A stretch of DNA of 64,000 nucleotides from a virus (lineage: Duplodnaviria > Caudoviricetes), in the IMG/VR virus record IMGVR_UViG_3300028591_000076, positions 1 through 64,000 of that record; one strand, given 5' to 3'. Shown here piece by piece: positions 80 to 63,113 of the stretch. The first letter of the stretch is position 1, and each line of letters opens with the position of its first letter. The notes under the pieces were generated by a model. The model did no database searches. It saw only the letters and a program-made list of their open reading frames with translations, and was not told where the DNA came from. Both the position numbers and the translations under genes were made by a program.

Positions 80-436
80 TTGATGACTAACATTGATACA
101 CGTGACGTATTTTATAACATTTATAATGATAAAATCTTTCCACATTTAACTTTTAATCCAGACGCTTATACATTAAATGTAACTCCGCTCGCTATGCAAA
201 GTTTATTTGATATAGCTTTTGCAGCCGGTATTAATTATTATAAACCCTATGAATTTTCATATGAAGCTAGAGATGTTATAGCATCAGGTTTGATTAAAAA
301 ACAATTTATAAAACAATTTGCTACAAATGCTTATTATATACAAGATATACCCGAAATTGAGCTATTTGATATTCTAGAAAAGGGCTTTATTGAAGGGCTA
401 AATACTGGTCTACAAAGTGACTATTTTAGCGACTAA
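80..436 (+). CDS. hypothetical protein (C-terminal YF-motif group)
   Basis: 118-aa ORF, TTG/ATG start after GAAGGT; ends LQSDYFSD. Confidence 0.7.
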   Translation: MMTNIDTRDVFYNIYNDKIFPHLTFNPDAYTLNVTPLAMQSLFDIAFAAGINYYKPYEFSYEARDVIASGLIKKQFIKQFATNAYYIQDIPEIELFDILEKGFIEGLNTGLQSDYFSD

Positions 437-520
437 TATAACAAAACTTATCTAAGCTGCTCTTATTCTGCTTTAAGAATTATGTAAAAATAGGCCATAG
501 TTAATATAATTATTATAGTT

Positions 521-1345
521 ATGGATAATATTAGTATTTCAACGCCAGATAATAAAGAAAATTATTATTTTACGGTATATTGCATATTTTTATCTAAAGA
601 AAGCTACGGATTTAAAAATGACCATTATTATATAGGACAGCATTATACAAATAATATAAATGATAATTATATGGGAAGTGGTGTTATATTAAGAAAATTA
701 TATAGTAAATATGGAAAAACCCACGCTAAAAAAACCATACTTAGCATATCAAAAACATTAGCAGAATGTAATGAGTCTGAAAAATATTTTATTAAAGAAT
801 ACCGCAAAAAGTACGGAAGATGTGTCTTAAATATTCAAGATGGAGGTCGAAATAATGCATCTTTTAATATTCCCGAAGGAGCTCATTTAAAAAATATTGA
901 AGGCCTAAAAGCGTATTGGTCAAATCCTGATAATAAAGATAGAATTCTTTTAAGAAATAAACGAATAGCTGAAAGTATGAAGGGAAATAAAAATGGTACG
1001 GGGACCGTACATCATCATTCAGATGAAATTCGTAAGAAAATATGGGAACATGTAAAAGCTACGAATCGGTCAAGAATACCTAAGCTCAGTGAAATTGGTA
1101 AAAAAACACTTTTTGTTTATAAAGATAATGGCCAATTGCAAGAATATAAATCCGTAAAATATTCTTGGAAATTATTGGGTTTTACTTCAGAATCTGTTTG
1201 TCAACGCTTTATTCGTTACTGTACAAAACTATTAGAAACTAATAATCTTAATACTTTTAATTTTAAGTATGGTAAATTATTTATTGCTTACCGTAAATTC
1301 GATGTTAATATAGTACAAAATATATTTAATAATACCATGTTTTAA
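521..1345 (+). CDS. GIY-YIG homing endonuclease with NUMOD3-like DNA-binding repeats
   Basis: TVY...YYIGQH, YMGSG, conserved E..FI and LNIQDGG; HHSDEIRKKI NUMOD3-like motif. Confidence 0.9.
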   Translation: MDNISISTPDNKENYYFTVYCIFLSKESYGFKNDHYYIGQHYTNNINDNYMGSGVILRKLYSKYGKTHAKKTILSISKTLAECNESEKYFIKEYRKKYGRCVLNIQDGGRNNASFNIPEGAHLKNIEGLKAYWSNPDNKDRILLRNKRIAESMKGNKNGTGTVHHHSDEIRKKIWEHVKATNRSRIPKLSEIGKKTLFVYKDNGQLQEYKSVKYSWKLLGFTSESVCQRFIRYCTKLLETNNLNTFNFKYGKLFIAYRKFDVNIVQNIFNNTMF

Positions 1346-1368
1346 TATAATATGGGAGGAGGTGCGCT

Positions 1369-2666
1369 GTGGGATGTAAGATTACACGAGACTGGAGTCT
1401 CGACCAAGGTAAAGCAGAATACTTAATGTTAACTGCCGACTTTGGTTCCTTACAATGATTCTTATGCGTTTAACTACCCAGGATACTTTTATGAACCCAT
1501 CAACTTTGGGTCACTGTGATCCTGGTTTATATGATATTTATAGGGCCGACACTGAATGTGCTGATGCCCATTCTAATACTGGCCGAATTGTCTTTGTTGA
1601 TTCTATTGGTGGCCAATTGTATGTATATACAATGGATGATGGCTCTAAGATTAAGCTATATCAAGATACTAAAATTCCTTACTTGAATAACAAGCTATCA
1701 CAAGACGTTCAGACTGGTGATATTCTGGAAGGGAAAAAAGTAGTTAGTATAGAACATCGTTCAATGACTACAAAAGAGTTTAAGTCTTTTACGAAAGATG
1801 GTTATATTGAAAAATACCAGGATAAACGTTTTGCTGGATGGCGACGTGCTTCTAAGACTGTAAACTTTGCTACACTCTTTGGCGCGACTGCGCCTACCAT
1901 GGCTAAGCAGCTTGAGAATGCTGGTTATAAAGAAGCAGAAGCGGAAGAATATATTGAGCTTACAAATAATACTGTAAGGTATAATGAGAAGCTTATTCAG
2001 ATGCGCGGTAAAATGACACCTCAGAAAGTTAAGTTTTTAGTAGCTGCAGAATTGATGCTCGAAGCTTATTATAATGGTTTCCCGGGTGTTAAAGAGAGAG
2101 CTCTGAGAGAGAAGCTTTTTGCTTGGAAAATGGGTTATTCTAGAATGTGGCATGGTCCTGTAAAGCATCTTCCAGAGCTTAAGTATATGGCAAGAAATGC
2201 TAAAGGTGAGCTAGTTGGAGCAGATAAGAAAATGTGGTCTTCAATGTTTAGTAACTTAAACAATGAAGCTGGAAATGCGCCAATTCAGTGTATGGAAGCG
2301 AATATTGCTATTAAGACTATTATAAATGTTTGTAAGTATGCTAAAGAGTGGAACTTAAAGTCTTATCTGTGGAACATGGTCCACGATTCGGAGGACTGGT
2401 GCGTTTGGAAACCAGAGCTTAATTTGGTTTGCGCATTATTAAATGCGTGTTCAACTTGGAAAAGAAACCCACATTTTGGTATTGATATGTGTATGGATTT
2501 TTCAATTTGTGATCCTTCTAAGGGATTTCAGAATAATATGTACCACGGTGGCCTAGAAAATCCATTTAAGATTGATAAAATAGAAGATGCCGTTGAAAAA
2601 TGGAATAAAGCACATGAAAATATTCCAGATTTTAAGCCTATTTCTTGGCATGGATGTGTTTGTTAG
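1369..2666 (+). CDS. polA: family A DNA polymerase, C-terminal (palm/fingers) part of a split gene; frame break at 1456-1463 in motif A
   Basis: GGAGGAGG + GTG(1369) opens 29 codons ending YLMLTADFGSLQ-TGA; ORF 1455..2666 continues MRL, DAHSNTG, motif B RRASKTVNFATLFG, NAPIQ, motif C VHDS. Confidence 0.85.
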
Positions 2667-2701
2667 TGGTTAAAATATTATAATAATTTTATTTTTATTA
2701 T

Positions 2702-2730
2702 AAAAATGCCCTTTTTAGAGGGCATTTTTT
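2702..2730. terminator. intrinsic terminator (bidirectional)
   Basis: AAAAATGCCCT..AGGGCATTTTT inverted repeat between convergent genes. Confidence 0.8.
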
Positions 2731-2795
2731 ATTATATACATCTTTTTAATAAAAATTTATAGTGAGCCATATTCCACAAAGATAATTTAAAAATT

Positions 2796-3978: not shown

Positions 3979-4407
3979 TTATAATGTCCTAAAATAGTTA
4001 TCTATTGTATTATAGTCATATAATACTTTGCTATTCATAAATATATCGTATATGTCCTTTTCTACTTGCTTTTTCGGAATAGTGCCTGTTTCACAAGAAG
4101 AGACTAATGATAAATTATTATCATAGAAGCTAAAGCATATACATAAAGCACTATAGCGTGCAGCTGCTAAATCTTTAAGGACTAATCTAATATTTTTTTC
4201 TGTTATTATGGACATGTCTTTTCTAATACTAATACCTATTGGTGAAAGACTTCCATATAGAGTTGTGCCAGACTTATTTTTAAAGTATATTTTTAATATA
4301 TTACTTTTACCGATAAGAAGAGGTATAGGACTCATTAGGCCATTCGTAAAATATATTTTATAGCCTTTATTATAAATATTTTCGCAAACTAAATTAAAGT
4401 CAAACAT
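3979..4407 (-). CDS. hypothetical protein (C-terminal YF-motif group)
   Basis: 142 aa, ends TIDNYFRTL. Confidence 0.7.
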   Translation of the reverse strand: MFDFNLVCENIYNKGYKIYFTNGLMSPIPLLIGKSNILKIYFKNKSGTTLYGSLSPIGISIRKDMSIITEKNIRLVLKDLAAARYSALCICFSFYDNNLSLVSSCETGTIPKKQVEKDIYDIFMNSKVLYDYNTIDNYFRTL

Positions 4408-4408: not shown

Positions 4409-4957
4409 TTAAAAATATCCTTTATTTTTCATTAAAAAAATAGCCACTATGAAAAGTATAATATATAAAATTATTTTAATATTATATTTTTTTCTTCTTC
4501 TTTTTGGCTTTTTTAGTAATTTAGAGGATAAATAAAATCTCTTTAGCCATTGCCATAAATTTGTTGGCCCTATAAGCTGCGAAATTCGTTTTCTTAATAA
4601 AAAAACAGTTTTATCAATCTTTTTATTTTTTACTATAAATGCTTCTCTAGACTGAACTCTGCCTTCATTAGACTCTCCGTCCCATTTAACTAAATCTTTA
4701 CAATATTGTTTTATATATTTATGAATATCGTGGTCGCTCTTGTAAACTGTTGAGTCTAATAAAATATTATTGCAAGCATGTATATATAAAAGATTTTCTG
4801 ACCCAGTTATGGGGTCTTTTTTCTTTAAGAATTTATAATGTAATGTGCCTTTTGATTTATAAGCTGAATCTCTACCACCTAAAGTAGACTCTTCACCAAT
4901 TATGAGTATATCTTTATTTTCTTCTAAGTTACCCTTTCTTATATAAAGCTGTTTCAT
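4409..4957 (-). CDS. hypothetical membrane-anchored protein
   Basis: likely start MKQLY coupled to the upstream stop; basic patch then C-terminal hydrophobic helix. Confidence 0.65.
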   Translation of the reverse strand: MKQLYIRKGNLEENKDILIIGEESTLGGRDSAYKSKGTLHYKFLKKKDPITGSENLLYIHACNNILLDSTVYKSDHDIHKYIKQYCKDLVKWDGESNEGRVQSREAFIVKNKKIDKTVFLLRKRISQLIGPTNLWQWLKRFYLSSKLLKKPKRRRKKYNIKIILYIILFIVAIFLMKNKGYF

Positions 4958-5139
4958 TAAATAACAGTATACTCCAATACGTCTTTTTCTTCCCAATAAA
5001 AAGAAAGATTATCCGAATATATTGTGAAAAATCGCATATTTTCCTTATCCAGATACCCTCTTAAAACTTGATGAGCTAACCTAGCTTCGCCACAAGGCTT
5101 AAAGTATACATCAATCCAATTATCTTTTTTTGTTAACAT
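4957..5139 (-). CDS. hypothetical protein
   Basis: 60 aa, GGGAG RBS. Confidence 0.6.
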   Translation of the reverse strand: MLTKKDNWIDVYFKPCGEARLAHQVLRGYLDKENMRFFTIYSDNLSFYWEEKDVLEYTVI

Positions 5140-5156: not shown

Positions 5157-5498
5157 CTATTCTGAATAATCATTAAAATATTTTTTGCCAGTATCATTAT
5201 AAACTAAATAGGTTATATGTGCGTCTGATATAATACGCCATTTTGGCGGCCACTTTTTAGAAATGCCAACTTCAGTTCTTACTTCATAGTCCATATTTAG
5301 TTTTGATAAAGCTATTCTCAAATATTTTCTATATCGCTTAAGCACAGTTGAATAACTTACGCCGTCTCTTATAAGTAATCTAGGCGGGGGCATTTCCACT
5401 TTTTGGTTTTTAATTATTTCATCAGATATTTCATCTAAATTATTTATTAAAAAGTTTAAAACTTTATTAAAATCACTTTTATTAAATTTTATAGACAT
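5157..5498 (-). CDS. hypothetical protein
   Basis: 113 aa directly after TTACATATT motif. Confidence 0.7.
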   Translation of the reverse strand: MSIKFNKSDFNKVLNFLINNLDEISDEIIKNQKVEMPPPRLLIRDGVSYSTVLKRYRKYLRIALSKLNMDYEVRTEVGISKKWPPKWRIISDAHITYLVYNDTGKKYFNDYSE

Positions 5499-15365: not shown

Positions 15366-15611
15366 TTAGTTTTCATCATAATCATCAAAATATGAATTTG
15401 GTAATTCATCTAAATATGATGTTACGGTACGTTCACATTGCTGATAAGCAGCAAAACTTCTATCTTTGTATTTTGATAATTCTTTTAGCAATTCATTAAA
15501 CTTTTTTTCATCATGACATTTTTGACTTATAAGACTACAAATTTCTTCATATATCTCATCTACAGCCGCTGTTTCCTTTGCATATTCTTCTAATTTAGAT
15601 TGTAGTGACAT
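15366..15611 (-). CDS. hypothetical protein
   Basis: 81 aa, ends NSYFDDYDEN. Confidence 0.65.
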   Translation of the reverse strand: MSLQSKLEEYAKETAAVDEIYEEICSLISQKCHDEKKFNELLKELSKYKDRSFAAYQQCERTVTSYLDELPNSYFDDYDEN

Positions 15612-15894
15612 TGAAATATGCCTCCTCTACTGGTAATGAAAATACAATAGTAATCTTATCATCTTTCTCTTTAACTTCGCTAACTCTATACTTAATATCT
15701 AACTCTGCAAAAGTATTATTTATAATTGAATTACATGTTTCTTCAACTTCTTGCTTAATATACTTCTTATTATATCTATTTGATATTACAATATTAAATG
15801 AATATGGAAATTCATTATTAAATTTAAATGAACTCTTTACAAAATTTAACATAGATATAATATCACATATAAAGGTATAATCTATACTATTCAT
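15595..15894 (-). CDS. hypothetical protein
   Basis: 99 aa after TAACATATT motif variant. Confidence 0.65.
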   Translation of the reverse strand: MNSIDYTFICDIISMLNFVKSSFKFNNEFPYSFNIVISNRYNKKYIKQEVEETCNSIINNTFAELDIKYRVSEVKEKDDKITIVFSLPVEEAYFNVTTI

Positions 15895-16136: not shown

Positions 16137-16385
16137 CTATGAGAAGTATTTATTTGCTTCTTTCTCAAATTTCTCTTCTTCTTTTTGCTCCAATTTTTTA
16201 TTTTGTGTCTCATGTATCTCATGTAATGTATTTACTAGAAGCTTAAAATAATTACTAGTAATATTTGTAGCAGATGCAAACTTACTTAATGTGCCATCTA
16301 TAAGCTCATCTATACTATTATAACTTGAATTATAATTATCCATAATAAATACCTCAAATATAATTAGTGAATTCCTTAAATCCAA
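16137..16385 (-). CDS. hypothetical protein (YF-motif group)
   Basis: ends KFEKEANKYFS; real start probably MDNYN after GAGG. Confidence 0.65.
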   Translation of the reverse strand: MDLRNSLIIFEVFIMDNYNSSYNSIDELIDGTLSKFASATNITSNYFKLLVNTLHEIHETQNKKLEQKEEEKFEKEANKYFS

Positions 16386-16615
16386 TAATCTTGAATCTGC
16401 TCATCCGTAAAATACATAGTATTAGGTTCCTTATTGCTTATAGCTATTTTACCTAAATATTCATAATTTAAGTTTTTCGTGTTACTAGAATAAGACTGTA
16501 GTCCAACCGATTTATAAAATGACTTATTAGATATGCTTATTATAGGATTAGTAATAGGTGCAAATGAGCCAAAAATTATATCATTACATAAAGTATTTCC
16601 CATTTTTTTCCTCAA
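16376..16615 (-). CDS. hypothetical protein
   Basis: ends QIQDYWI. Confidence 0.55.
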   Translation of the reverse strand: MRKKMGNTLCNDIIFGSFAPITNPIISISNKSFYKSVGLQSYSSNTKNLNYEYLGKIAISNKEPNTMYFTDEQIQDYWI

Positions 16616-16790
16616 ATTCTTTATTTAACTTATTCTCAATAGCTTTTTTATCTACTCTACCAAGAACTTCTTCTAATGCGCTTAAAGTATTTTTGATAAT
16701 TGCTTCTTGCGCTGTTAAACCAGACTCGTCAGTATTTATTGCCTGTTCTACTATATGAGACCAGTTTACTTTTAATTTATCATCAATCAT
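16584..16790 (-). CDS. small hypothetical protein, paralog of 16783..16998
   Basis: LKVNWSHIVE / EFEEKNGKYFM. Confidence 0.65.
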   Translation of the reverse strand: MIDDKLKVNWSHIVEQAINTDESGLTAQEAIIKNTLSALEEVLGRVDKKAIENKLNKEFEEKNGKYFM

Positions 16791-16998
16791 AAAAATACCT
16801 TTTGTTTATTTCTTCAAATTCTCTATCTGCCATGAGAGGTTCTACTTCTGGCGATAAATTTCCTGAAAAAGCCGTCTGAGAAAAAAAGCTTGGGTTTAAT
16901 GTAGGACTAAGTACAGCTTCTACGTTCTGTGACCAATCAACATGTACTCTTATTGGCTTTGGTGTAAAAGGTTTTGGATTAAAACTTATGGGTTTCAT
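16783..16998 (-). CDS. small hypothetical protein, paralog of 16584..16790
   Basis: VHVDWSQNVE / EFEEINKRYFYD. Confidence 0.65.
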   Translation of the reverse strand: MKPISFNPKPFTPKPIRVHVDWSQNVEAVLSPTLNPSFFSQTAFSGNLSPEVEPLMADREFEEINKRYFYD

Positions 16999-17438: not shown

Positions 17439-19799
17439 ATGAATAATATATTTAATCAAATACTAACAGAAGCTAGCAAAGCACGCTTTATAAATAAAGC
17501 AGACCTAACTGCTGAAGAAAAAGATAAGTATATAAAATTTTTTAATACACACCCAAATTTAGATAATTTAGTTAAATGGCAAGACCCTAATGATGTTACT
17601 AGAGAAAAATTAGAGTCCATCTATAATATGGCTATAGCTAATTCAAAAGAAAAAAAGTTATCCAGACAAAAATATAGACAGGCCTTAGATAATGGTCCAG
17701 CACAGCTTTTCTTAAGCAGACCCGATGATTTTAAGATTATTGATGAAAATGATAAATTTCTTTTTGTACAAGTTCTAACATATGAAGGCGCTAAGTTCTG
17801 CGATAGTCCAGAATGTGGCGGACAAGGCGCAAAATGGTGTATTGGATATGAAAAGACTGACGAATACTGGAAATCTTATACGCGTGTTATAGATATACCC
17901 GAAGAAGATGATGAAGAAGGCTTATATGATGACTATGAAAATGGCATGTATAATAATACATTTATTTTAGCTTTTAATAAAGATATTCATGTACCACAAA
18001 ATAAATTAAAGTATATGCTTCGTCTTAGACTAGATGACTCTTCCGGTGAAGCATGGCCACAAGATGATGACGCTAATAATACAGTTGATATAAAAGACTG
18101 GCCAGAAGTATTTGGTATACTAAGTACTGAAACTGATATACATCCTAAAATTAAGAGGTCTGAATTCTTAGGATATGTTACTACTAGTCATATAAGTATA
18201 GGTGAAATCTCTACTACACCAGCTGAGCGTAAAATTACAAAGTTCAAAGAAAAAGTTATAATACCAGAAGATATTAAAATAATAGGAACAGATGCTTTTA
18301 GAGATGCAATATTTGAAGATGATGTGATATTACCTTCAAATTTAGAGTCAATAAAAGATTATGCATTCTATAAAGCTAGCTTTAAAAATAATCCACAATT
18401 GCCTGAGGGACTTACTAATATAGGCTATAGAGCTTTTGCTTTTTCAAATATATCTGAGATAAATATTCCTTCTACCATAACTCATATAGGCAGTTCAGCT
18501 TTTGGAAACACACCTATTAAAAAAGTAATCTTACCACCTAATGATATTGCTATAGGAAATGTTTTTTATGACTGTAAAAAGCTAGAAGAACTAACAATAA
18601 CTGGTGATACTTCCCTATTCCATGACTCACGTAGCCTTAAAACATTATATTATAATGTGGGCCATAAACTAAAATTAAATTTTACTGGTACATCAAGATA
18701 TACTATAAGAGATAATATTATCATTGATAAATCTACTATGGCTTATATAGCGCCAGTAGAATATTTAGATGATATAAATACTAAAATAACTGAATTAAAT
18801 ATATTACCATATATGAAAGCTATATGTCCTATATGTAGACTTAGTGACGATATTAAAAGTCTGTATATACCAGATGGTATTGAAACTATTGGCGCTAATG
18901 CTTTTGAGTATAGCAGAATTGAAAGTATTAGATTACCTAATACATTAAAAACTATAGGATCACATGCATTTGCTAATTGTACACTTAAGGGTACATTAGA
19001 AATTCCAGAGTCAGTTACTAATATTGAGTCTGGCGCATTTTATGGATGCTATGATTTACTTATCTTTATACCTAGTAATATCAAAACACCTTTAATTGGT
19101 GAAGAATCACAAATTTTCAATGAGCCACTTTCAAATTATTCATATGTAGATGGCATATTATATAATAAAAATGATATGCTAGTTTATTTTATAAATACGG
19201 ACTCAGATACAGTTATTATTCCGGAAGGTATAAAAGGCTTTAAATTTAAGGTAAAAGATGACTATGAGGGCCGTATAATTTATTCTGTAAAATATATAAA
19301 TAATATTAAAAGTATTATATTACCAGATAGCTTTATATTAAAAGATGCAGATTTCTATGGCTTTAAGTCATTACAATTCGTATCATTTCCCAATTCTGCT
19401 ACAAATATTCCAGCTGCATGCTTTTGCAAATGTAAGGAAATAAAACAAATATCATTACCAGATAATATACAATATATTAATCGTAGCGCATTTAGTGGTT
19501 GTAGTTATCTTAAACAAATTACATTATCGCCAAATCTACGTGGAATATCTAATTTTGCATTTAATCATACTGCATTGGAAAAAATAGATTTACCTAAATC
19601 TCTAACTTATCTAGAGCCTGCCGCTTTTACTTCTACTAATATAGGCGTTAGTCCTGACTCTATATCTTATAATGGCACAGTTGACGACTTTAATAATAAT
19701 GTACTTATTTATAGTGAAGAAAGCCTTAAATGTTATTCTAAACGGGAAGCAATTGTTAACTGCGTAGATGGTAAAGCAAAAATAACTATATATATTTAA
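17439..19799 (+). CDS. large BspA-type LRR protein, paralog of 10813..13593
   Basis: EASKARFIN, ECGGQGAKWCIG, multiple LPxxLxxIGxxAF repeats. Confidence 0.88.
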   Translation: MNNIFNQILTEASKARFINKADLTAEEKDKYIKFFNTHPNLDNLVKWQDPNDVTREKLESIYNMAIANSKEKKLSRQKYRQALDNGPAQLFLSRPDDFKIIDENDKFLFVQVLTYEGAKFCDSPECGGQGAKWCIGYEKTDEYWKSYTRVIDIPEEDDEEGLYDDYENGMYNNTFILAFNKDIHVPQNKLKYMLRLRLDDSSGEAWPQDDDANNTVDIKDWPEVFGILSTETDIHPKIKRSEFLGYVTTSHISIGEISTTPAERKITKFKEKVIIPEDIKIIGTDAFRDAIFEDDVILPSNLESIKDYAFYKASFKNNPQLPEGLTNIGYRAFAFSNISEINIPSTITHIGSSAFGNTPIKKVILPPNDIAIGNVFYDCKKLEELTITGDTSLFHDSRSLKTLYYNVGHKLKLNFTGTSRYTIRDNIIIDKSTMAYIAPVEYLDDINTKITELNILPYMKAICPICRLSDDIKSLYIPDGIETIGANAFEYSRIESIRLPNTLKTIGSHAFANCTLKGTLEIPESVTNIESGAFYGCYDLLIFIPSNIKTPLIGEESQIFNEPLSNYSYVDGILYNKNDMLVYFINTDSDTVIIPEGIKGFKFKVKDDYEGRIIYSVKYINNIKSIILPDSFILKDADFYGFKSLQFVSFPNSATNIPAACFCKCKEIKQISLPDNIQYINRSAFSGCSYLKQITLSPNLRGISNFAFNHTALEKIDLPKSLTYLEPAAFTSTNIGVSPDSISYNGTVDDFNNNVLIYSEESLKCYSKREAIVNCVDGKAKITIYI

Positions 19800-20548
19800 T
19801 AAATACTAAAATATGACGTTATAGTAGAGTCTGATAATCCCTGTACTAATAAATTATATAGAGCAGCTATATTATAATATTCTTTATTTTGATTGATATA
19901 GTTATGTATTAGAAATGTAATACAATAATCATTTGTCTTTAATAATTCAATATTTCTATGCTTATGAGTAGTACAATTATAAGGCTCCCACATAAGAAGT
20001 CCATTACGTTTTCTCTTAGAACATATAATATTCATATCTTCAAAAATATTATGAATTAGTCTGGTATTTATTAGTAAAGATGAAGTATCTATCCAATTTG
20101 AAGACTTATGTATTTTCTGTAATAAATCAACTTCATTATTAGACTTAACTAAGTCAGCAATAGATATTGAGTCGACAATATTACTCATATATATATTATA
20201 TTTATCTTTTATTACTTTTGTTAAAAAAGGCTTAGCATAATCTTTTAAGTCTATTTTTCTACCACTCACCTTTAAGCCAAAAACATTACTTAATACATTT
20301 GATACTGCTACTGGGAGAGGTAAAAAATATTTAGCATCTTTTCTTTTAAGCTCCCACATCTCTGCAGCTTCCGTATAATGAAAACTACAACCTTCCTCAA
20401 ACTTACTAAGTTCATGTCCAAAAGTAGAAGTTATAGATATATAACCTGGATTTACTCGAACTACTTGATGTAAAATAATAATTGATGTATCCCCGTTAGC
20501 CAAGGTTTCTAGAGCATTTTCTAATGTTTTATAGGAAATATTATTCAT
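19796..20548 (-). CDS. hypothetical protein
   Basis: 250 aa downstream of TTACATATT; ends TITSYFSIY. Confidence 0.7.
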   Translation of the reverse strand: MNNISYKTLENALETLANGDTSIIILHQVVRVNPGYISITSTFGHELSKFEEGCSFHYTEAAEMWELKRKDAKYFLPLPVAVSNVLSNVFGLKVSGRKIDLKDYAKPFLTKVIKDKYNIYMSNIVDSISIADLVKSNNEVDLLQKIHKSSNWIDTSSLLINTRLIHNIFEDMNIICSKRKRNGLLMWEPYNCTTHKHRNIELLKTNDYCITFLIHNYINQNKEYYNIAALYNLLVQGLSDSTITSYFSIY

Positions 20549-36360: not shown

Positions 36361-36397
36361 CTTCTAAATTCCTTTATATATGAACTCATACATTTCC

Positions 36398-36730: not shown

Positions 36731-36739
36731 ATATAAACC

Positions 36740-37042: not shown

Positions 37043-37195
37043 TTTATAATTTTCTAGTTATGAGTCTACTTTTGTATTTTCTCTCTTAAAAAAACTCATA
37101 AGTTTATCCTTAAAAATGTGAATTTTTTGAAATTGAAGTTATATTAATTAATGTATAGTAAGAAGGAATATAGCTTTTGGCTTGCGTAGCGCCAA

Positions 37196-37459
37196 TTAAT
37201 AATTATAATATTTTTCTATATTTGTATCATTTGTTTCGTTTATTATAAATTCGTATACAACAACACCAGAAATTGTTGTATTTAAATAATTTATTTTATA
37301 TTTTATATTATGGTCATCTAAAAAGCTTCTTATTAAAATTGCTGGAATACCATTATATCCATAATTTGCTATTAAAGATGTAAATTTATTATTAAATGCG
37401 TCTTTTAATTGAGGAAATTGCTCTAGTAAAGTTTTTTCATTAGCAGTAATATCAGCCAT
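37196..37459 (-). CDS. hypothetical protein, paralog of 37452..37763
   Basis: FPQLKDAFNNKFTS; ends NIEKYYNY. Confidence 0.65.
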   Translation of the reverse strand: MADITANEKTLLEQFPQLKDAFNNKFTSLIANYGYNGIPAILIRSFLDDHNIKYKINYLNTTISGVVVYEFIINETNDTNIEKYYNY

Positions 37460-37763
37460 AATAATAATTCTCTAACTTATCCATATTTATAAAAATTCTG
37501 TAGGACTGTATAATACCGCATGTTACTTTTTCAGCAGATAATTTATAATTTAATTTTTTCTTATCCAGTAATTCTAATATTTTTTCTTTTTGATTTGGTG
37601 CAGGTGAACCAATCATATATTCATTAAACTCAATAGGAATTACAAAAGATACATATTCACCATTTAGCGCTTTTTGTAAATCTGGATATAAGCTAATAAT
37701 ACCATTATCAGTATATCGAATATATCCATTAGAGTATTGAACGGTTAAGGGACTTTCTTCCAT
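37452..37763 (-). CDS. hypothetical protein, paralog of 37196..37459
   Basis: YPDLQKALNGEYVS; ends KLENYYYG. Confidence 0.65.
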   Translation of the reverse strand: MEESPLTVQYSNGYIRYTDNGIISLYPDLQKALNGEYVSFVIPIEFNEYMIGSPAPNQKEKILELLDKKKLNYKLSAEKVTCGIIQSYRIFINMDKLENYYYG

Positions 37764-39154: not shown

Positions 39155-39895
39155 TTATTTATAGTAAACTGCTACTTGGCACTTTCTATAAAGAGTTGCA
39201 CCATTTTCTTTCCAAAGTTTATTATTAATAGCACTTCCCCAAGTATCTTCTTTATTCATAGGATATAATTTCTTATAATCACAATATGTGCTATCTGGAA
39301 TAATATTTAATAACGAAAGTCCTTCATGACATGCTAAAACATCATGTAAACGTTTGTCACTATTAAATTTATACTCTTCTTGTAATTCTTTAAAAAATTT
39401 AGAAGACCATAATCCTTTAATAGTATTTTTTTCATCATGACATAAATGTTTACCAACTAAAATAATTTCACTTAATTTATTTTCTGGCATAGATAAAACT
39501 TTTTTAGTTGACTCTATGTCCATATTAAAGTTGTAAGTTCTAACAAACTCTTTATATTTAAACTTTGGAAGTTGCTCTTCAGCTACTATGATATTATTTC
39601 CTACAAAACCGCCATTCATAACTAAAGTATCTAATGTATTTCCAGCTTCTAAGAACTCAGCAACTTTTGTAAGCGCACCACCACAAAATACTATTTCAGT
39701 GCCTAATTGAATTTCTGGAAACTTAGCTACGCCTTTAAGAATAAATTTATTTAATCTCTGTTTTCCTTCTTCTGATATAGGTTCAGGATCACAAACAATA
39801 TAAGATAATGCGTCATATTTGAGAAGGTATTCTATTGCAATTATATCATCAATATCTTGGTCTAGGTCTGCTATATAAGCTACTTTAGTTTTCAT
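39155..39895 (-). CDS. nucleoside hydrolase-like protein (IU-NH fold)
   Basis: DLDQDIDDIIA (DxDxxxDD), GALT, VMNGG, YNFNMD, LHD. Confidence 0.8.
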   Translation of the reverse strand: MKTKVAYIADLDQDIDDIIAIEYLLKYDALSYIVCDPEPISEEGKQRLNKFILKGVAKFPEIQLGTEIVFCGGALTKVAEFLEAGNTLDTLVMNGGFVGNNIIVAEEQLPKFKYKEFVRTYNFNMDIESTKKVLSMPENKLSEIILVGKHLCHDEKNTIKGLWSSKFFKELQEEYKFNSDKRLHDVLACHEGLSLLNIIPDSTYCDYKKLYPMNKEDTWGSAINNKLWKENGATLYRKCQVAVYYK

Positions 39896-41895: not shown

Positions 41896-42252
41896 ATGAC
41901 TAAATTGGAAGAATATGATTTATATGGCTTATGTACAAGCTTAAATGAAACATTTCTAAAAAAAGACGGAGTAGGATTAGGTTTTTATTTTTTAATGAAT
42001 AGTCCATATTTTATAGATAATAGATGCTTAAGAAGTTATCCACAAACAAGTATACCTAAAGACAATAAATATCATCGTACTAGCCAAGCACTTATCCAAA
42101 CGTGCATTGGGCATATTAAAAATAGTAAATGTATTTTTAAAAAAATGCTTAAAAAAAATTTTAATATAGACGATAAACTTTTTGAAAGCTTAAAATGCCA
42201 TATAGATAATTATATTACTAACTTAAGCACTTATGAAAAATATTTTCTATAA
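41896..42252 (+). CDS. hypothetical protein (YF-motif group)
   Basis: TTACATATT 5 nt before ATG; ends TYEKYFL. Confidence 0.7.
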   Translation: MTKLEEYDLYGLCTSLNETFLKKDGVGLGFYFLMNSPYFIDNRCLRSYPQTSIPKDNKYHRTSQALIQTCIGHIKNSKCIFKKMLKKNFNIDDKLFESLKCHIDNYITNLSTYEKYFL

Positions 42253-42298: not shown

Positions 42299-43237
42299 TT
42301 AGTCGCCAAACATCTTAGCGATATCTTCATCAGACATATTTTCATACTTATCCATATCTAATGCAATTTCATCGTCTGACTTATTAAAAATATCAAATGG
42401 GTCATCATTACCAGTATCAGCTGGCTCTTCTACTTCATTAGAAGCTGGTTCAGCTGGTTTTTCAGCTTTAGGCTCTTCTACTGGTGGCTCATTAGATACT
42501 GGTTCTTCAGTTTCTGGCTCTTCTGCAGCTGGTTCGCTAGCTGCTGGAGTATCATCATTACCTAAGAAATCATTATCTGTAATATCAGCGAATGGGTCAT
42601 CTCCCGCTGCACCTTCTGGTTCTGCATTTGCAGATTCTGCAGGTGTATTATCATTTGATGCTGGAACTACTAGAAGATCATCAGCAACTGCATCTTGTGC
42701 ATTCATTAAGATATTTGCAAGATTAGTATCACCCTTACCCATTTCGTCGACAAGAAGCTGTGCCTGTCTAAGAAGTTCAGCTACTTTGTTAGCTTTAGCT
42801 TCATCTGAAACATTTTCTGAAGCTGCTGTATCAGTTCCTGATGTAAATTCAGCTTCAAGACCAGTAGGTGTTGCTTTTCCTGGATTCTTAGCTTTCCAGT
42901 CTGCTATCATGCTATCAGCAATAGGCTGAATTGCATTAGAAATTGCAGTACGTTTACCCTGGTGCTTTACATTACCATTTCTATCAAGTCTATCTGTGTT
43001 AGCCATGTCTGGGAACATTTCATAGAACTCGTTAACTAATGCATTATATGCTTCATAAGCAGGTGTACCTTCTGCATTGTGTGAAGGATTTTTATAAAGG
43101 AATAAGAACTCAGGGTGAATTTCGCAGAATTGACGAATTTGTCTTGCATATGCCTGAGCCATTTCATTCAAATTACCTTCTTGAAGGTTACTCTTTAATG
43201 CCTCTTTATAGATATTTTCGAAAAATGTCTTATTCAT
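42299..43237 (-). CDS. acidic Pro/Ala/Glu-rich protein, putative prohead core/internal head protein
   Basis: downstream of terminase; LQE/LNE-MA N-terminal sites; disordered acidic C-terminal half with DDPF repeats. Confidence 0.55.
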   Translation of the reverse strand: MNKTFFENIYKEALKSNLQEGNLNEMAQAYARQIRQFCEIHPEFLFLYKNPSHNAEGTPAYEAYNALVNEFYEMFPDMANTDRLDRNGNVKHQGKRTAISNAIQPIADSMIADWKAKNPGKATPTGLEAEFTSGTDTAASENVSDEAKANKVAELLRQAQLLVDEMGKGDTNLANILMNAQDAVADDLLVVPASNDNTPAESANAEPEGAAGDDPFADITDNDFLGNDDTPAASEPAAEEPETEEPVSNEPPVEEPKAEKPAEPASNEVEEPADTGNDDPFDIFNKSDDEIALDMDKYENMSDEDIAKMFGD

Positions 43238-43323: not shown

Positions 43324-45594
43324 CTATAAATATAGACCTAAGCTATTCATAAATGTATTAGTTTTACCCTTAATTATCTCATATGATCTTTCTAGCGCAG
43401 CTCCTGGATCCCAAACTTTTCTAGGTATAAACTCATCAGGATATGTATCTAGTAATGATATAGACGCTACAACAGAGTCAAGATTATCCTTTGCAAAATA
43501 GCCAATTTGAGATTTAGACCATGCGGAGTCTGTATAAGTAGCGCCAGACTGACAGAAAGAGTCTGTATAAACGTTTTTTCCTTTCTTATGGTCTACTTTA
43601 GTAGAGCCCGACTGTCGCTTAGCATACTCAAGTGATAACATATTATTTTTTGCCATAATATTTTTACCACAAGCCCATCTTCTATGGAAAGCATAATCTA
43701 TAAATGCATTATAAGGAACATTTACTTTATCAACTGATAATAACTCAACTTCAAAACCAAATCTTTCCAAAGCCTGCATGATAGAACGAGACTGGAATCC
43801 ATCGAAAGATACATGAGATATATTCATATGTCCTAAAGTTACTAAATCCATCAAGAAAAACTTAAATGCATCAAGGTTAATCATACCACCCTTAGGAATT
43901 ACCGGAATAGTAAAATCAGTAACATACATCTTTAACTGATTACCTTCGTCATCTAATACGGGACTCCACTCAACGTGACTTATAGCAATAGACGCAGTAT
44001 CGCCAGAAATAGCTAAGTCGACAGAAGCTGATCTTGGTGTGGATGGCTCATAATAGAAATAATAATTTTCCATTACTTTATTAAAGAATATATCTTTAAC
44101 TTGATTCCAAATTAAATGTTCTGGCTCTTCTTCTTTCAAAGCAATAATATTACTGAATACATTTCTTAAATTATTATTAAATGCATCTTCTACTACTTGT
44201 TGTTCATAGAAAATGCGGTCTGCAGCGCCAGATGGCTGTCCACATAAGTCACGCATGAACTGTATAGGGTTTTCTTGCGCCTGTATTTTATAGTTAACTT
44301 CACCATTTGGGCCCATATATAATTTTGGACACCAAATAATATCTTTCTCATTATAAGTTGCTAACTGTTCAGCATTTTCAATAACAGTTGTTGGCTTACC
44401 AGAGCCGCCTTTAAATAATGGGAATGCCACTTTTAAGTCATGCTTAACTTGACCATTCTCATCTAAAGCATGCTCAAACCCTTTAGGGAAATATTTCCAT
44501 CTTGAGCCGGTTAAAATATAATTTTTAGGGTCTTTTGGAGCAGTTTCATGAATCCATTTATCAATACTAGATTCTAAATTATTTGGGGAAGAATCAAGTA
44601 TAAATCTACCATAGTAATTACCAAACATACGAGAATCAATTCTGGAACGAAGTTTAGTAAAGAATTTCATAACATCATCAGAAGACCAGCCGTTTTCTTC
44701 AAAGAATGCTAACTCAGTTAAAATTCCAGAAATGATTGTAGAACCAATGATATCTTTATCACCTGCTACGGTTTTATAATTGACGCCACCCTGCATCGTA
44801 AGAGCGCTGGTCTTTGAAGCGGTTGTCCAAAGTAATTGATTAGCTACTTCATCTGGTGGCGCGTCTTCATCAGTAATATCCTTACTTCCACGTACTTGTT
44901 TAAAATAAGGACTAGAGTTAATTATATTAAGAATTGGTTCAAGTAAGATTTCAGAGCCTTTTTTCTGAGACCAAGCGCCCAATGCCTGAATATAAACAGT
45001 AGCTGAGCTCTGCCCAAAATACTTGTATGGATGCCACATCATTGCGAAGTGTGTAGAAATATAAAGCTGAATAATAGCAGAAAGCGCGGATTTTCCCCAT
45101 CCAATATGCAAACTTAATATTGCGTTTCTATATGGACTAAGTGGATTCATAAATTCTATAAACGCTTTTCTAACAGGTTCATATAGTGTTTCAGCTGTTG
45201 GACCTAGATATTTTTCTGTTAAGAATTCTTCTGGCGTAGGCGGCTTACATTTGAAATTAAGTCGCCAGCCTTCTGATAAAAGCTCATTTTTAAATACATC
45301 ATTTATACTATTAGTCTTTGCTAACCATTCTATAGCAGCTTTAATATTATTAAAATTTAATGCCTTAAATTCTGGCCTATTAAGAGCTTCTTCATTACCA
45401 TCGAGAATGTCTTGAAATATATATTTTAAGTTACCTAGTGTATCTGGTAATAAAACTGTATTTTCTTGGTCAAGTCCGTTATATGGTAAAATTAAGCCTT
45501 TATCTTCGCCGGATTTTACCATATCATATTTTACTTTTTCAGGGTCATCAGATATTTGAGCTGCGTCAAATAAATCTTGTCCTATATCTTTCAT
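43324..45594 (-). CDS. terminase large subunit (T4 gp17-like)
   Basis: HIGWGKS Walker A, ILTELAF Walker B, LDSSP, RNase H nuclease SVDLAISGD, SFDGFQS, KD..D. Confidence 0.9.
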   Translation of the reverse strand: MKDIGQDLFDAAQISDDPEKVKYDMVKSGEDKGLILPYNGLDQENTVLLPDTLGNLKYIFQDILDGNEEALNRPEFKALNFNNIKAAIEWLAKTNSINDVFKNELLSEGWRLNFKCKPPTPEEFLTEKYLGPTAETLYEPVRKAFIEFMNPLSPYRNAILSLHIGWGKSALSAIIQLYISTHFAMMWHPYKYFGQSSATVYIQALGAWSQKKGSEILLEPILNIINSSPYFKQVRGSKDITDEDAPPDEVANQLLWTTASKTSALTMQGGVNYKTVAGDKDIIGSTIISGILTELAFFEENGWSSDDVMKFFTKLRSRIDSRMFGNYYGRFILDSSPNNLESSIDKWIHETAPKDPKNYILTGSRWKYFPKGFEHALDENGQVKHDLKVAFPLFKGGSGKPTTVIENAEQLATYNEKDIIWCPKLYMGPNGEVNYKIQAQENPIQFMRDLCGQPSGAADRIFYEQQVVEDAFNNNLRNVFSNIIALKEEEPEHLIWNQVKDIFFNKVMENYYFYYEPSTPRSASVDLAISGDTASIAISHVEWSPVLDDEGNQLKMYVTDFTIPVIPKGGMINLDAFKFFLMDLVTLGHMNISHVSFDGFQSRSIMQALERFGFEVELLSVDKVNVPYNAFIDYAFHRRWACGKNIMAKNNMLSLEYAKRQSGSTKVDHKKGKNVYTDSFCQSGATYTDSAWSKSQIGYFAKDNLDSVVASISLLDTYPDEFIPRKVWDPGAALERSYEIIKGKTNTFMNSLGLYL

Positions 45595-54887: not shown

Positions 54888-55151
54888 TTATATAATCTTT
54901 TTCATATATAACTTATAGCCGCTATAATTTCTATTCACTAAGTCTAACGCTTCTTCATATGAATAATGAATAGCACCATCAATGCCATTCGCGTCTTCTT
55001 CTACATTATAAACTTTGGTAGGACACCAATCTGGATGTACAGAATTATGCGTAAAAATAAATCTATTATATCCTAGTTCATCTGGCTTATCTGTTTCTGC
55101 AATAATAATATATTTAGAATTATCCATAATAAATTTCCTCAATATTGGCAT
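54888..55151 (-). CDS. hypothetical protein
   Basis: likely start MDNSK. Confidence 0.6.
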   Translation of the reverse strand: MPILRKFIMDNSKYIIIAETDKPDELGYNRFIFTHNSVHPDWCPTKVYNVEEDANGIDGAIHYSYEEALDLVNRNYSGYKLYMKKII

Positions 55152-55527
55152 TATTATATAAATGTTCTAAAAATTTAATAGTATGTTCTTCATCTACTAA
55201 TGTATAATATTTATTTGTTTCAAAGTTTATATTACTATTATTGTTACTTAATTCACAAACTAAAAACTGTCCCATAGGATCAGAGTCTAGCATTTCCTTA
55301 TCGGCATATTTTCTAAAAATAAAAAATATAGAGGTATTTGACATATTTAACTTAGCATTATATATAATTTGATAGGGCCCAATGTTAAAATAGTTATCAA
55401 TACCGTCCTTTGATATGCTAATTAAATATTCTAAGTAATTTCTATAAATTTCTTTATTAGATAATATATTATTTTTAATTTTTTGAAATAAATATTCATT
55501 AGCGGCAGACTCTACTTGCGAAAACAT
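55120..55527 (-). CDS. hypothetical protein, paralog family with 55639, 56422, 57595
   Basis: GQFLVCEL..FETNKY..IKFLEHLY; ends IEEIYYG. Confidence 0.7.
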   Translation of the reverse strand: MFSQVESAANEYLFQKIKNNILSNKEIYRNYLEYLISISKDGIDNYFNIGPYQIIYNAKLNMSNTSIFFIFRKYADKEMLDSDPMGQFLVCELSNNNSNINFETNKYYTLVDEEHTIKFLEHLYNNANIEEIYYG

Positions 55528-55638: not shown

Positions 55639-56037
55639 TTAAAAATATTCTTGTAATATTGAGTTTTTATATTGCTTTAAGTTATATAAATCATCCAAAA
55701 ATTTTAGTATTAGTCTTTCTTCACTCTCTGAAATATAGCGGTTACCCTCAAAATCTACTTTGATATTATTTAACTCAAACCATAAAAACTGTCCAAATAC
55801 TTCTTCATTATCTCTATTAAGAGGACCAAAAGCAAAAAAAGTAAAGGTTTTGGTAATAGAATTATAATTCCACTTTATTTCAAATTCATTAAAAAATAAA
55901 GATTTACAATCATCACCTATACAGTCTATTCCAATTGCTCTATATAATATTGCTGAATAAGCTTTTTCTCTAGAAGTTATTTTTTTATAGATTTCTTTCG
56001 CTAACTGCTCATTTTCCATTATAGTATGCGTAAACAT
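55639..56037 (-). CDS. hypothetical protein, paralog of 55120..55527
   Basis: GQFLWFEL..FEGNRY..LKFLDDLY; ends ILQEYF. Confidence 0.7.
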   Translation of the reverse strand: MFTHTIMENEQLAKEIYKKITSREKAYSAILYRAIGIDCIGDDCKSLFFNEFEIKWNYNSITKTFTFFAFGPLNRDNEEVFGQFLWFELNNIKVDFEGNRYISESEERLILKFLDDLYNLKQYKNSILQEYF

Positions 56038-56421: not shown

Positions 56422-56769
56422 TTATTCTCCATAATAATCGTCTACTTTATTTTCAAACTTAATATAACTTAAGAATTTAGACAAGAGTCTATCTTCTCTT
56501 TCTGTTTCTATATCAGAAAAAAAGCCAGATGCTAAATTATAACTTAAAAAAGTTTGCATTCCAAAGTTTACTAAAACTTTATCAGCCTGTCTATAATCAG
56601 GATGTACATACATAAGAATACTAAAAGGACCAAGCTTTTTCTCATAAAATGCTTGAAAAGAACCCTCATATAAAAGATTTATAATTTTAGCATTCTTAAA
56701 ATCTAGCTTAGAAATATAAACTTCTATTAAGTCTCGATCTTCGAATGGCATAAAAAAACCTGTACCCAT
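56422..56769 (-). CDS. hypothetical protein (YY-motif group)
   Basis: LLSKFLSY; ends VDDYYGE. Confidence 0.65.
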   Translation of the reverse strand: MGTGFFMPFEDRDLIEVYISKLDFKNAKIINLLYEGSFQAFYEKKLGPFSILMYVHPDYRQADKVLVNFGMQTFLSYNLASGFFSDIETEREDRLLSKFLSYIKFENKVDDYYGE

Positions 56770-56773: not shown

Positions 56774-57181
56774 TTAAAAATAATTACTAGCGATACTTAT
56801 AGAATGCATTATCGCATTTTTATCTCTATAAAATATAACTGTAAATTTTTTCTTAAATACCTTTATAAAAGTACATTCCATATTATTAGACTTCTTAAAA
56901 ATACTAACTTGAGAAAGATAGCCCTCATTTAATAATCTTCCAATACTACAATCTTTATAATATTTTGCATAGCGCTCATAATTTAAAAATGTAGTAACTT
57001 TATATTTATCATCTAAGGGTACAGAGTATTTTGTTAGGCCATATCCATCATCAAATATTTTTTCTGTACTCATTTCATTATCATTAAAAGTATTATCAAT
57101 CTTAAAATCTGATAAAGTTAAAGACTCTAAAAACTCTGCAATTTGATTTATTTCATTTATGTCTTCTATGCTATTAAACAT
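56774..57181 (-). CDS. hypothetical protein (YF-motif group)
   Basis: ends IASNYF. Confidence 0.65.
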   Translation of the reverse strand: MFNSIEDINEINQIAEFLESLTLSDFKIDNTFNDNEMSTEKIFDDGYGLTKYSVPLDDKYKVTTFLNYERYAKYYKDCSIGRLLNEGYLSQVSIFKKSNNMECTFIKVFKKKFTVIFYRDKNAIMHSISIASNYF

Positions 57182-57594: not shown

Positions 57595-57954
57595 CTATTC
57601 ATAATATTCCATTTCTGAAAGATGCATATAAAATTGACTTAAGAACTTTAATACAAGCGTTTTATTAGGCCCAGAAATAAATGTGCATTCTTCTTTATCT
57701 GAGAATCTAGAAATTCCATAATAAATAACTTGTTCTTCATTATGGAATACTCTAAATTCATAAGTAAAGTTTTTGCTATAGCTATCTATAATACCTTTAA
57801 CCTTAAAACTACCAATATCAAATTCTAAATCTGAATTTTTTACTTTCTCTATGAAAAAATCAAAAACTTTATCTTCGCTTTTATTAAAAAATTCTTTTAT
57901 TTCTTCATAAGCACTCTTATCTATTAAGCAATTAATTTTTAATGGATATGCCAT
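57595..57954 (-). CDS. hypothetical protein (YY-motif group)
   Basis: LVLKFLSQFY; ends LSEMEYYE. Confidence 0.65.
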   Translation of the reverse strand: MAYPLKINCLIDKSAYEEIKEFFNKSEDKVFDFFIEKVKNSDLEFDIGSFKVKGIIDSYSKNFTYEFRVFHNEEQVIYYGISRFSDKEECTFISGPNKTLVLKFLSQFYMHLSEMEYYE

Positions 57955-61566: not shown

Positions 61567-61602
61567 AAATTACCTTTATTAAATATGTAATAATTATTTA
61601 AT

Positions 61603-61884
61603 TTACGCTTGTTTACTTAAAGCTTGTGCCATTAAATCATTGCCATCTCTAAATGGAGAATTAGAGCCTAAAACGTCCTCAGAATTTGTCATTATAACTT
61701 CATTTGGATTATTTGTTTTATTTGTTTGTAATGTTCTTAATGCCATAAAACTATTCTGGAAATTTACAAAATCTGTATTTCTTTTTATATCAACTTGTTG
61801 CTGAATAAGTTTTATTTTTGTAATATCATCCATATCAGAATGTAATATAGCAAGTTCAGTTTTATATATTTCTTTTTCTTCCAT
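61603..61884 (-). CDS. hypothetical protein
   Basis: likely start MEEKE after GAGG. Confidence 0.55.
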   Translation of the reverse strand: MEEKEIYKTELAILHSDMDDITKIKLIQQQVDIKRNTDFVNFQNSFMALRTLQTNKTNNPNEVIMTNSEDVLGSNSPFRDGNDLMAQALSKQA

Positions 61885-61885
61885 C

Positions 61886-62482
61886 TTAGTCCTCATCAAA
61901 TTCAGGCTCTCTAGTATCTTCACAACATTTTATTTCTTTAACTTTTACTGTTTTATAATAAGAATCACTAATATCAAAACCAAATTCTCTTCGTGATCTT
62001 ATTTTTTCTAATTCCTTCATACGACTCTTAATTTCTTCTAAATTAAAATTATCTAGTAGATATCTAACCACAGAGTTTACTACATTATTTACTATAGACG
62101 TATCAGAATAGCTATTTACCCAAATAGGCTTAATTGTCCATTCTCTTTTACCATTTACATTTTTTATTTTATAATAATTCGATAAAATATGGTCTCCCTC
62201 ACGATGAGTATTCCTTAACGCGCCATAGATATTACGTCCAAAACAATTTTTCCAATTTTCATTTCTAAAGCGTATACCATCAAAAGATGGCCTAATATCT
62301 ACTATCATACCAGACATACCTACATGTACATGGTCTTCTGGCGCCCATGTTGGACTAACGGCACTACCAAAAATAAAATTTATATCTGCTTCTTTATCAG
62401 CTGTTGCTTTATTTATTAAAAAATATGCACCCTGTACTGTACTAATAATATCCTTTAATCTCTTAACTTCCTTTTTAGTCAT
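61886..62482 (-). CDS. hypothetical protein
   Basis: 198-aa ORF. Confidence 0.7.
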   Translation of the reverse strand: MTKKEVKRLKDIISTVQGAYFLINKATADKEADINFIFGSAVSPTWAPEDHVHVGMSGMIVDIRPSFDGIRFRNENWKNCFGRNIYGALRNTHREGDHILSNYYKIKNVNGKREWTIKPIWVNSYSDTSIVNNVVNSVVRYLLDNFNLEEIKSRMKELEKIRSRREFGFDISDSYYKTVKVKEIKCCEDTREPEFDED

Positions 62483-62493
62483 ATCTATATATC

Positions 62494-62844
62494 CTACCTA
62501 ATATAATAATTATATTTATAATCTAGATGATAATTATCACCAGATAAAGCAACATGTTTATCATAAATTTTTACTAAAAAACTTTTATCCCAGCCTAATA
62601 CCCTATCAAAAAATTCATTTTCGCCCTGTAAATCTTCCATTTGTATTAGAAAAAAATTTTCAATGCTATAGAGAAAAAAACCTAATAAGTCACTTTCCTT
62701 ATTATTAAAATCATTAAATAAAAATTCTGAAAATAGCTCTTTATACTTTTTATTATTTCGCTTACTAAAAATATAAATAAAAAAGCCATTAGTATCATCA
62801 TCTTTTTCTAAATTTACAATATAGCTAGACAGCTCAACAGTCAT
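62494..62844 (-). CDS. hypothetical protein
   Basis: 116 aa, ends YNYYIR. Confidence 0.65.
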   Translation of the reverse strand: MTVELSSYIVNLEKDDDTNGFFIYIFSKRNNKKYKELFSEFLFNDFNNKESDLLGFFLYSIENFFLIQMEDLQGENEFFDRVLGWDKSFLVKIYDKHVALSGDNYHLDYKYNYYIR

Positions 62845-63113
62845 TAGTTGCTCCCATAATACATATTATATAAATTTATATCACTAGTTTCAGTTATTGT
62901 AATATCGGATATAACTATATCCTCTTCTGAAAGATGTAATTTATATACTAATAAAGTAAAGTCATAAACACCGATCGCTGTTTTAGCTGCGCCATGAGAT
63001 GCAAAAACTCTAGCATTTTGTAAATTTTCTACTAGGCATATTTCTGAGCCAGAGCCAGCTATATATTTATTACCTATTCTAACAACGCATTTTCTATCGT
63101 TTCTCTTTTTCAT
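62844..63113 (-). CDS. hypothetical protein
   Basis: 89 aa, ends NMYYGSN. Confidence 0.65.
   Translation of the reverse strand: MKKRNDRKCVVRIGNKYIAGSGSEICLVENLQNARVFASHGAAKTAIGVYDFTLLVYKLHLSEEDIVISDITITETSDINLYNMYYGSN

Follow-up and report, generated by a model that had tools for sequence, protein, structure and literature searches.

Short peptides at the ends of proteins direct their bearers to particular machines in several described systems. AAA+ proteases recognize C-terminal degrons such as ssrA (...YALAA, for ClpXP and ClpAP), MuA (...RRKKAI), SulA (...LYH, for Lon) and the Mycoplasma ssrA tag (...NYAFA, read by Lon). Sliding-clamp ligands carry either the PIP box, Qxx[ILM]xx[FY][FY], or, in phage T4, a hydrophobic tail of the L-D-F-L-F type. 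ESCRT-III proteins have C-terminal, helical MIM motifs; the classical AAA ATPase Vps4 recognizes these through its N-terminal MIT domain and then remodels the proteins. The proteasome HbYX motif (Hydrophobic-Tyr-X) forms the exact last three residues of an ATPase activator, while encapsulin cargo-loading peptides are C-terminal, rich in Gly, Ser and Leu, and found on cargo encoded beside the shell gene. Here we analyze a Tyr-aromatic tail that ends many small proteins of one virus, IMG/VR record IMGVR_UViG_3300028591_000076. A preliminary description of its first 64,000 nucleotides (the window) had listed 23 such C-termini. We searched the literature and found no description of a tail of this kind, carried by ~18% of the proteins of a virus, in mostly unrelated families and within one phage lineage.

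Comparison with these systems reveals both shared and divergent features. Like the AAA+ degrons, the phage tail is short, has aromatic or hydrophobic determinants and stands at the extreme end of proteins that are otherwise unrelated; its genome also encodes a Clp peptidase and an AAA+ unfoldase. The extreme position is seen in 43 of 51 tails, with Tyr third or fourth from the end; for the unfoldase and peptidase it is their presence alone that agrees. Unlike those degrons, the tail consists of Tyr and a second aromatic residue plus 0-2 variable residues, is preceded by acidic or amide residues, and is encoded on ~18% of the proteome rather than being added or rare. It resembles the PIP box and the T4 and RB69 gp45-binding tails in having, close to the C-terminus, an aromatic pair with a hydrophobic residue 3-4 positions ahead of it. 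However, the PIP/gp45 consensus is absent, since there is no conserved Gln (position -6 is E, Y, L or D), Tyr is strictly first, and ~50 clients are involved instead of a handful. As in the Vps4-MIM system, many small proteins bear a C-terminal motif and the phage encodes an AAA+ protein of the same clade with a conserved N-domain of ~200 residues, whereas no sequence similarity to MIM or MIT is found and the phage bearers are not one family. The sharing of a terminal address peptide by unrelated proteins recalls encapsulin cargo peptides and the T4 capsid targeting sequence, but the T4 signal is N-terminal, is cleaved off and has a different motif. An encapsulin-type cargo peptide was rejected because the motif differs and the bearers are spread over ~27 loci. 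An HbYX docking motif was also rejected, as 0-3 residues follow the aromatic pair, Phe is second in 29 of 51 tails, and no recognizable bearer is an ATPase.

The Tyr-aromatic tail and its bearers

The window is the start of a linear, 239,841-bp record (G000; 30% guanine plus cytosine, GC; ~76% complete), in which we called 288 genes with a simple longest-open reading frame (ORF), low-overlap rule (94% coverage). A tail was scored strictly, as Y-[FYW] within the last six residues. By this rule 51 of the 288 proteins (~18%) carry a tail, compared with 9.4 ± 3.0 in 2000 per-protein shuffles (maximum 22), 9.2 in internal windows of the same proteins and 7 in an N-terminal control, which bears out the enrichment implied by the preliminary description. 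The excess is ~5-fold overall and 10-12-fold at two preferred positions, with 24 proteins having Tyr as third-last residue and 19 as fourth-last (background 0.67% per position; binomial p ~3e-31 for these 43), and the rate falls to background beyond the fifth position. When all 400 dipeptides were scanned without bias over the last six residues, YF (p=1e-15) and YY (p=1e-7) came out on top. The enrichment is confined to pairs that begin with Tyr, with FY, FF and FW at background, and YW, encoded by TAT TGG, occurs.

The residues around the pair are also distinctive. Counting back from the Tyr, I, L, V or M occupies position -3 or -4 in 71% of tails versus 40% of internal Y[FYW] pairs (p=2.6e-5), and D, E or N at -1 and -2 reaches 1.12 per site pair versus 0.51 internally (p=2e-9). 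The signature is thus [I/L/V/M]-x(2,3), mostly D/E/N at -1/-2, then Tyr-[Phe/Tyr/Trp], followed by 0-2 (rarely 3) residues without strong preference and the stop. Tails belong to small proteins, being present on 40 of 117 proteins below 150 residues, 3 of 66 at 250-500 residues and 0 of 36 above 500. The bearers are soluble, with a transmembrane-like segment in 1 of 41 versus 13 of 83 other small proteins, and tend to be acidic.

All 23 C-termini quoted in the preliminary description are present in the sequence, and 19 of these genes satisfy the strict rule. Two further window tails bring the total to 21 of 80 genes, and to 18 of the 40 genes below 150 residues. Two of the quoted genes, at 80 and 41896, run on the + strand and so have their C-termini at 436 and 42252. 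The tail genes of the window are:

80-436, + strand: 118-aa protein, ...LQSDYFSD
3979-4407, - strand: 142-aa protein, ...IDNYFRTL
4409-4996, - strand: 195-aa protein, ...KNKGYF (beyond the quoted 23)
5157-5498, - strand: 113-aa protein, ...KKYFNDYSE; pair 7 residues from the end, outside the strict rule
15366-15611, - strand: 81-aa protein, ...NSYFDDYDEN; pair 8 residues from the end, outside the strict rule
15595-15894, - strand: 99-aa protein, ...EEAYFNVTTI; pair 7 residues from the end, outside the strict rule
16137-16385, - strand: 82-aa protein, ...ANKYFS; pair encoded by TAC TTC
16376-16615, - strand: 79-aa protein, ...IQDYWI
16584-16790, - strand: 68-aa ORF, ...NGKYFM; overlaps its neighbour and so is not in the 288-gene set
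16783-16998, - strand: 71-aa protein, ...INKRYFYD
19796-20548, - strand: 250-aa protein, ...ITSYFSIY
36064-36360, - strand: 98-aa protein, ...IASEYFL; in the array 36064-37763
36398-36730, - strand: 110-aa protein, ...QINNYFL
36740-37042, - strand: 100-aa protein, ...YINNYYS
37196-37459, - strand: 87-aa protein, ...NIEKYYNY; followed by a hairpin, no gene start
37452-37763, - strand: 103-aa protein, ...KLENYYYG
39155-39895, - strand: 246-aa protein, ...VAVYYK; terminator-like hairpin after it; may be a chance instance (beyond the quoted 23)
41896-42252, + strand: 118-aa protein, ...YEKYFL; terminator-like hairpin after it
55120-55527, - strand: 135-aa protein, ...IEEIYYG; paralogue of 55639-56037
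55639-56037, - strand: 132-aa protein, ...ILQEYF; orthologue in the related L059 (88% identity) also tailed
56422-56769, - strand: 115-aa protein, ...VDDYYGE; L059 homologues (82% and 36% identity) end ...DDYYGE and ...NKYFGE
56774-57181, - strand: 135-aa protein, ...IASNYF; L059 homologue (36% identity) ends ...LDSYFSIN
57595-57954, - strand: 119-aa protein, ...EMEYYE
62494-62844, - strand: 116-aa protein, ...KYNYYIR
62844-63113, - strand: 89-aa protein, ...NMYYGSN; homologue in the distant relative G001 (49% identity) ends ...EGGYF

Besides these genes, the window encodes a portal-like protein, a gp10-like baseplate domain, a DnaB-type helicase, an RNA ligase, Thg1, Sir2, a PolA-type domain and BspA-type leucine-rich-repeat proteins. 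Beyond it lie genes for topoisomerase IB, NrdD, thymidylate synthase, flagellin and the spirochaete-specific FlaA, and the last two point to a spirochaete host. No close relative of the record was found among deposited phages, and its closer relatives are represented by fragments alone. A 351,527-bp contig carries an identical copy of one of its proteins, and therefore about one third of the phage genome may be absent from the record. A scan of the 240 kb for tRNA and tmRNA genes found none, leaving no phage tmRNA tag for comparison.

Composition, kinship and conservation

A tail rich in Tyr and Phe in an AT-rich genome could be a compositional or nucleotide artefact, produced by AT-rich codons (TAT, TTT) before the stop or by translation or transcription signals of the downstream gene. 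The 30% GC content, the ~10% of residues that are Tyr or Phe, and the next start codon lying 10-20 nucleotides downstream of many tails would suit such an origin. However, hexamers of the form TAY-(TTY|TAY|TGG) are in excess only in frame, 9 and 12 nucleotides before the stop (24 and 19 versus ~2.8 expected), with counts of 0-4 at out-of-frame offsets. Synonymous codon choice within the motif is genome-like (TAC in 5 of 51, genome 10.4%; TTC in 3 of 29, genome 17%). Tail frequency is much the same whether the tail gene faces a convergent gene (18%), precedes a gap of >60 nucleotides (22%) or has its next gene within 25 nucleotides (29%), and a terminator-like hairpin directly follows at least seven tails. 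In 486 non-gene ORFs there is no excess (24 tails versus 21 expected). The presence of YW, with FY and FF not enriched, also argues against an artefact. In addition, relatives of similar GC show little or no excess: G001 (33%) has 14 tails versus 10 expected, and G002-G004 (~37%) have 1-2 each versus 2-5, which excludes composition alone as the cause. The in-frame, codon, context, non-gene ORF and relative tests thus refute the artefact explanation, to which we attach practically no probability; the tail is selected at the amino-acid level. Neither AT content nor overlapping nucleotide signals, named in the preliminary description as possible undoing of its claim, explain the tail.

We then asked how far the bearers are related to one another. 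An all-against-all phmmer comparison, with or without the last ten residues, divides them into 48 families, and when each physical cluster is counted once, ~27 tail loci remain versus at most 9 expected, mostly arrays of small genes. Their lengths range from 65 to 384 residues, and only three match known families: dihydrofolate reductase (DHFR), DUF7695 and HNH/homing endonuclease. The DHFR (287 residues; G000 150176-151039, + strand, equal to L019:10176-11039) has two Pfam stretches and ~130 residues beyond the standard enzyme. It ends ...RYYND, an ending conserved in G001 and in the close relative L065, which is probably the enzyme's own last strand and a chance instance rather than a tag.

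It could be argued that there is no separate tag, only a few very diverged, lineage-specific paralogue families whose Tyr-aromatic end is an inherited C-terminal helix cap. Nine consecutive genes at 232000-234967 do form one family by alignment with a shared C-terminal helix, further paralogy links 55120, 55639 and 57595 as well as 37196 and 37452, and tail-tail pairs are enriched at high alignment z-scores (1.6% versus 0.2% above z=5). The bearers are also alike in size, arranged in tandem and restricted to the lineage. Set against this are the 48 families that remain after the tails are trimmed, the wide length range with an HNH-type endonuclease and a DUF7695 protein in it, and the count by locus. 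A profile of the nine-gene array, run at a cutoff as loose as E<10, matched nothing else among the encoded proteins, and among 1.84 billion representative proteins it found only nine significant members, all of them tail-bearing array homologues. An AlphaFold2 model of an array member (17-sequence alignment, mean predicted local distance difference test score, pLDDT, of 81) combines a helix with a four-stranded sheet and closes with a long helix extending to the Tyr; a Foldseek search of the PDB with this model gave no match at E<=0.001. Its alpha/beta fold contrasts with the rough all-alpha model of 41896-42252, which is of low confidence (mean pLDDT 51). The pLDDT falls to ~43 over the last three residues of the array member and, as described below, the tail is better conserved than the helix preceding it, unlike a buried core residue; the model fits an exposed helix tip. 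A single diverged paralogue family therefore does not extend beyond the 232-235 kb array and a few pairs, and we regard the inherited-cap explanation as improbable, third in rank among the readings of the tail. The bearers had been called mostly unrelated, and this holds across the 48 families, with the array and a few neighbouring pairs being diverged paralogues.

Conservation was examined across 32 homologue pairs (36-97% identity, some redundant), of which 30 keep the tail, as expected of the tag originally proposed. Tyr is identical in 94% and the aromatic residue in 97%, versus 59-72% at positions -1 to -5, and pairs of only 36-44% identity retain the tail. L059 has an RNA ligase of 93% identity with nine small genes upstream of it, of which six bear a tail; two of these six have no G000 homologue, and two are 36% identical to the proteins at 56774 and 56422 and end ...DSYFSIN and ...NKYFGE. 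Tails are likewise found on new genes without a G000 homologue in L067. Homologues of the 41896 protein (79-85% identity) all end in EKYFL, and their neighbours in L058 are 95-97% identical, so that the gene evolves fast while its tail stays fixed. L068 shows synteny across the arrays at 225-226 kb and 232-235 kb and keeps Y-[FY] in 12 of 13 tail genes at 60-97% identity, for example CEDNYYL to KMGEYYL, and the sole exception is a truncated gene. The distant G001 shares 70 of the 288 proteins at a median identity of 43%; three of six tail-protein homologues keep the tail, and there is a weak excess of Tyr at the third and fourth positions from the end (10 versus ~4.5 expected). The more distant G002-G004 have no tail excess. 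The bearers evolve quickly, yet no other stretch of their C-terminal regions is as well conserved as the tail. These alignments indicate that the tail is under purifying selection and concentrated in this phage lineage.

Other terminal signals and an insertion

A different signal, an N-terminal F-E-x-I-Y leader, is present on ten proteins, two in the window (35156-35740 and 42299-43237) and eight outside it. The leader and the Tyr-aromatic tail mark separate protein sets, with 0 of 10 overlapping.

In G002 (L039-L048) another shared C-terminal tail, ...[AG]-R-R-I-I-x-x, ends four larger proteins, and the same genes occur in G003. The four endings are PARRIING, AGRRIIKD, PARRIIKD and VGRRIIQR, and the genes lie at 93365-94417, 106720-108054, 158034-158699 and 158939-160246; two of them are 3-5 kb from a ClpP-like S14 gene.

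Comparison of L058:3566-7629 with window positions 43324-45594 showed that the orthologue of a 756-aa protein is split in L058 by a 436-aa ORF, with flanks that are 97-99% identical. This ORF has a weak DUF7487 match and is related to an eight-member G000 family, one member of which matches HNH/homing-endonuclease PHROGs. It looks like a mobile insertion.

Candidate readers and the role of the tail

We consider it very probable that the tail is a real shared address tag, selected at the protein level. The distance from the tail to the free C-terminus is tightly fixed, and therefore one common reader of the protein end is probable. This sustains the part of the preliminary description that proposed a shared C-terminal tag on mostly unrelated accessory proteins; the specific docking hubs it suggested find no support. 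Its alternative, a degron, gains circumstantial support from a phage ClpP and an AAA+ unfoldase. These and the other proteostasis genes, all of which lie outside the window, are:

91521-92126, - strand (L016:11521-12126): canonical ClpP, 279 bits; flanked by tail genes at 90322 and 92428
148272-149543, + strand (L019:8272-9543): 423-aa AAA+ protein of the classical clade
100151-101833, 141837-143717 and 160996-163701: other loci of this set, which also holds GroEL, Hsp70 and a rhomboid

At least one Hsp70 (626 residues) is encoded, with a possible second of 901 residues, and in L065 an Hsp20-like gene stands beside Hsp70. This proteostasis gene set is unusually complete for a virus. A survey of jumbo phages (PMC7824862) already mentions phage ClpP.

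Among solved structures, the AAA+ protein is closest to VAT, the proteasomal Rpt subunits and p97, and it has an intact pore loop, SKYCGE. It ends ...KKTIGF, and I-G-F lies within the last 1-5 residues of 20 of 20 full-length phage homologues down to 46% identity; across 21 phage sequences G422 and F423 never vary, and I421 is kept in at least 90%. The tripeptide is also found in the G002 homologue and in Arcobacter homologues. Since ClpX uses the tripeptide IGF to dock on ClpP, the phage may build its own AAA+-ClpP protease, by a coupling that is possibly new. The conserved N-domain of ~200 residues would, by analogy with the Vps4 MIT domain, be a natural reader of C-terminal tags. A complex prediction of residues 1-200 with a tail-bearing array protein scored 0.00, and this counts neither way. 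A search of viral contigs for relatives carrying this AAA+ protein found none, and among genome contigs only distant AAA domains (23-32% identity) were recovered.

We rank first, at a probability of roughly 40%, the reading of the tail as a C-terminal degron or tethering peptide for an AAA+ protease. The tail would act as an address tag at the protein end, its one common reader would be the protease, and the outcome would be the timed removal of accessory, probably early, proteins. The machine could be the phage AAA+ protein with the phage ClpP, or a host protease. A fully private form of this mechanism, in which the AAA+ protein docks on the phage ClpP through IGF and unfolds ~50 tagged, unrelated accessory proteins, appears rather unlikely.

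Several observations weigh against proteolysis by an AAA+ machine. The last one or two residues vary here, whereas the C-degrons known for ClpX and ClpA finish with fixed non-polar residues. About nine of the 51 tails are expected by chance, and part of the count, judging from the paralogy of the nine-gene array and several pairs, is inherited and not independent. G001, an 88% complete record, has neither a ClpP nor an AAA+ homologue, yet shows the weak tail excess; G002 has a ClpP-like gene and an AAA+ protein, whose N-terminal region is not alignable with the G000-type N-domain, and shows no excess. Across these genomes, then, the tag does not follow the presence of the AAA+/ClpP pair; a host reader is equally conceivable.

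Ranked second, and in our view possible though doubtful, is a non-proteolytic docking tag that tethers accessory proteins to one hub; candidates for this hub are a clamp encoded outside the recovered sequence, RNA polymerase, a phage chaperone (Hsp70 or GroEL), the inside of the capsid or a protein of the host. All of the evidence for a real, selected tag fits docking too, the hydrophobic-x-x-aromatic-aromatic spacing resembles a PIP box, and the narrow lineage spread suits adaptation to one host or phage factor. With the record 76% complete and one protein shared with the 351,527-bp contig, a clamp could lie in the missing part. However, the sliding clamp named among the hubs of the preliminary description is not borne out by the available sequence. 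Searches of the 240 kb with PF09116, PF02916, PF00705 and PF02768 gave no match, so that gp45, PCNA and DnaN were not detected there, nor was a family-B polymerase. The canonical clients also lack the tail, as it is absent from the PF00476 (PolA)-matching protein of the window, from all large enzymes and from all 36 proteins above 500 residues. The missing Gln at -6 and the strict Tyr in first place differ from PIP and T4 tails, the tight spacing to the C-terminus would be unusual for clamp motifs, and the ten proteins with the FExIY leader never carry the tail. Among other conceivable roles, a DnaK-type binding site is unlikely because the tail flanks are acidic and known DnaK motifs favour basic flanks. 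A T4 prohead-protease site, (L/I)-x-E, before the tail was rejected by inspection, as the I/L spacing is unlike I-x-E.

If one reader does recognize the tail, dozens of hypothetical giant-phage proteins would be sorted into one functional class from sequence. The tail peptides, together with YF-to-AA mutants, give an experimental handle on proteins that otherwise offer none. If private phage proteolysis through the AAA+ protein and ClpP were true, it would be the virus's own clock for removing early proteins.

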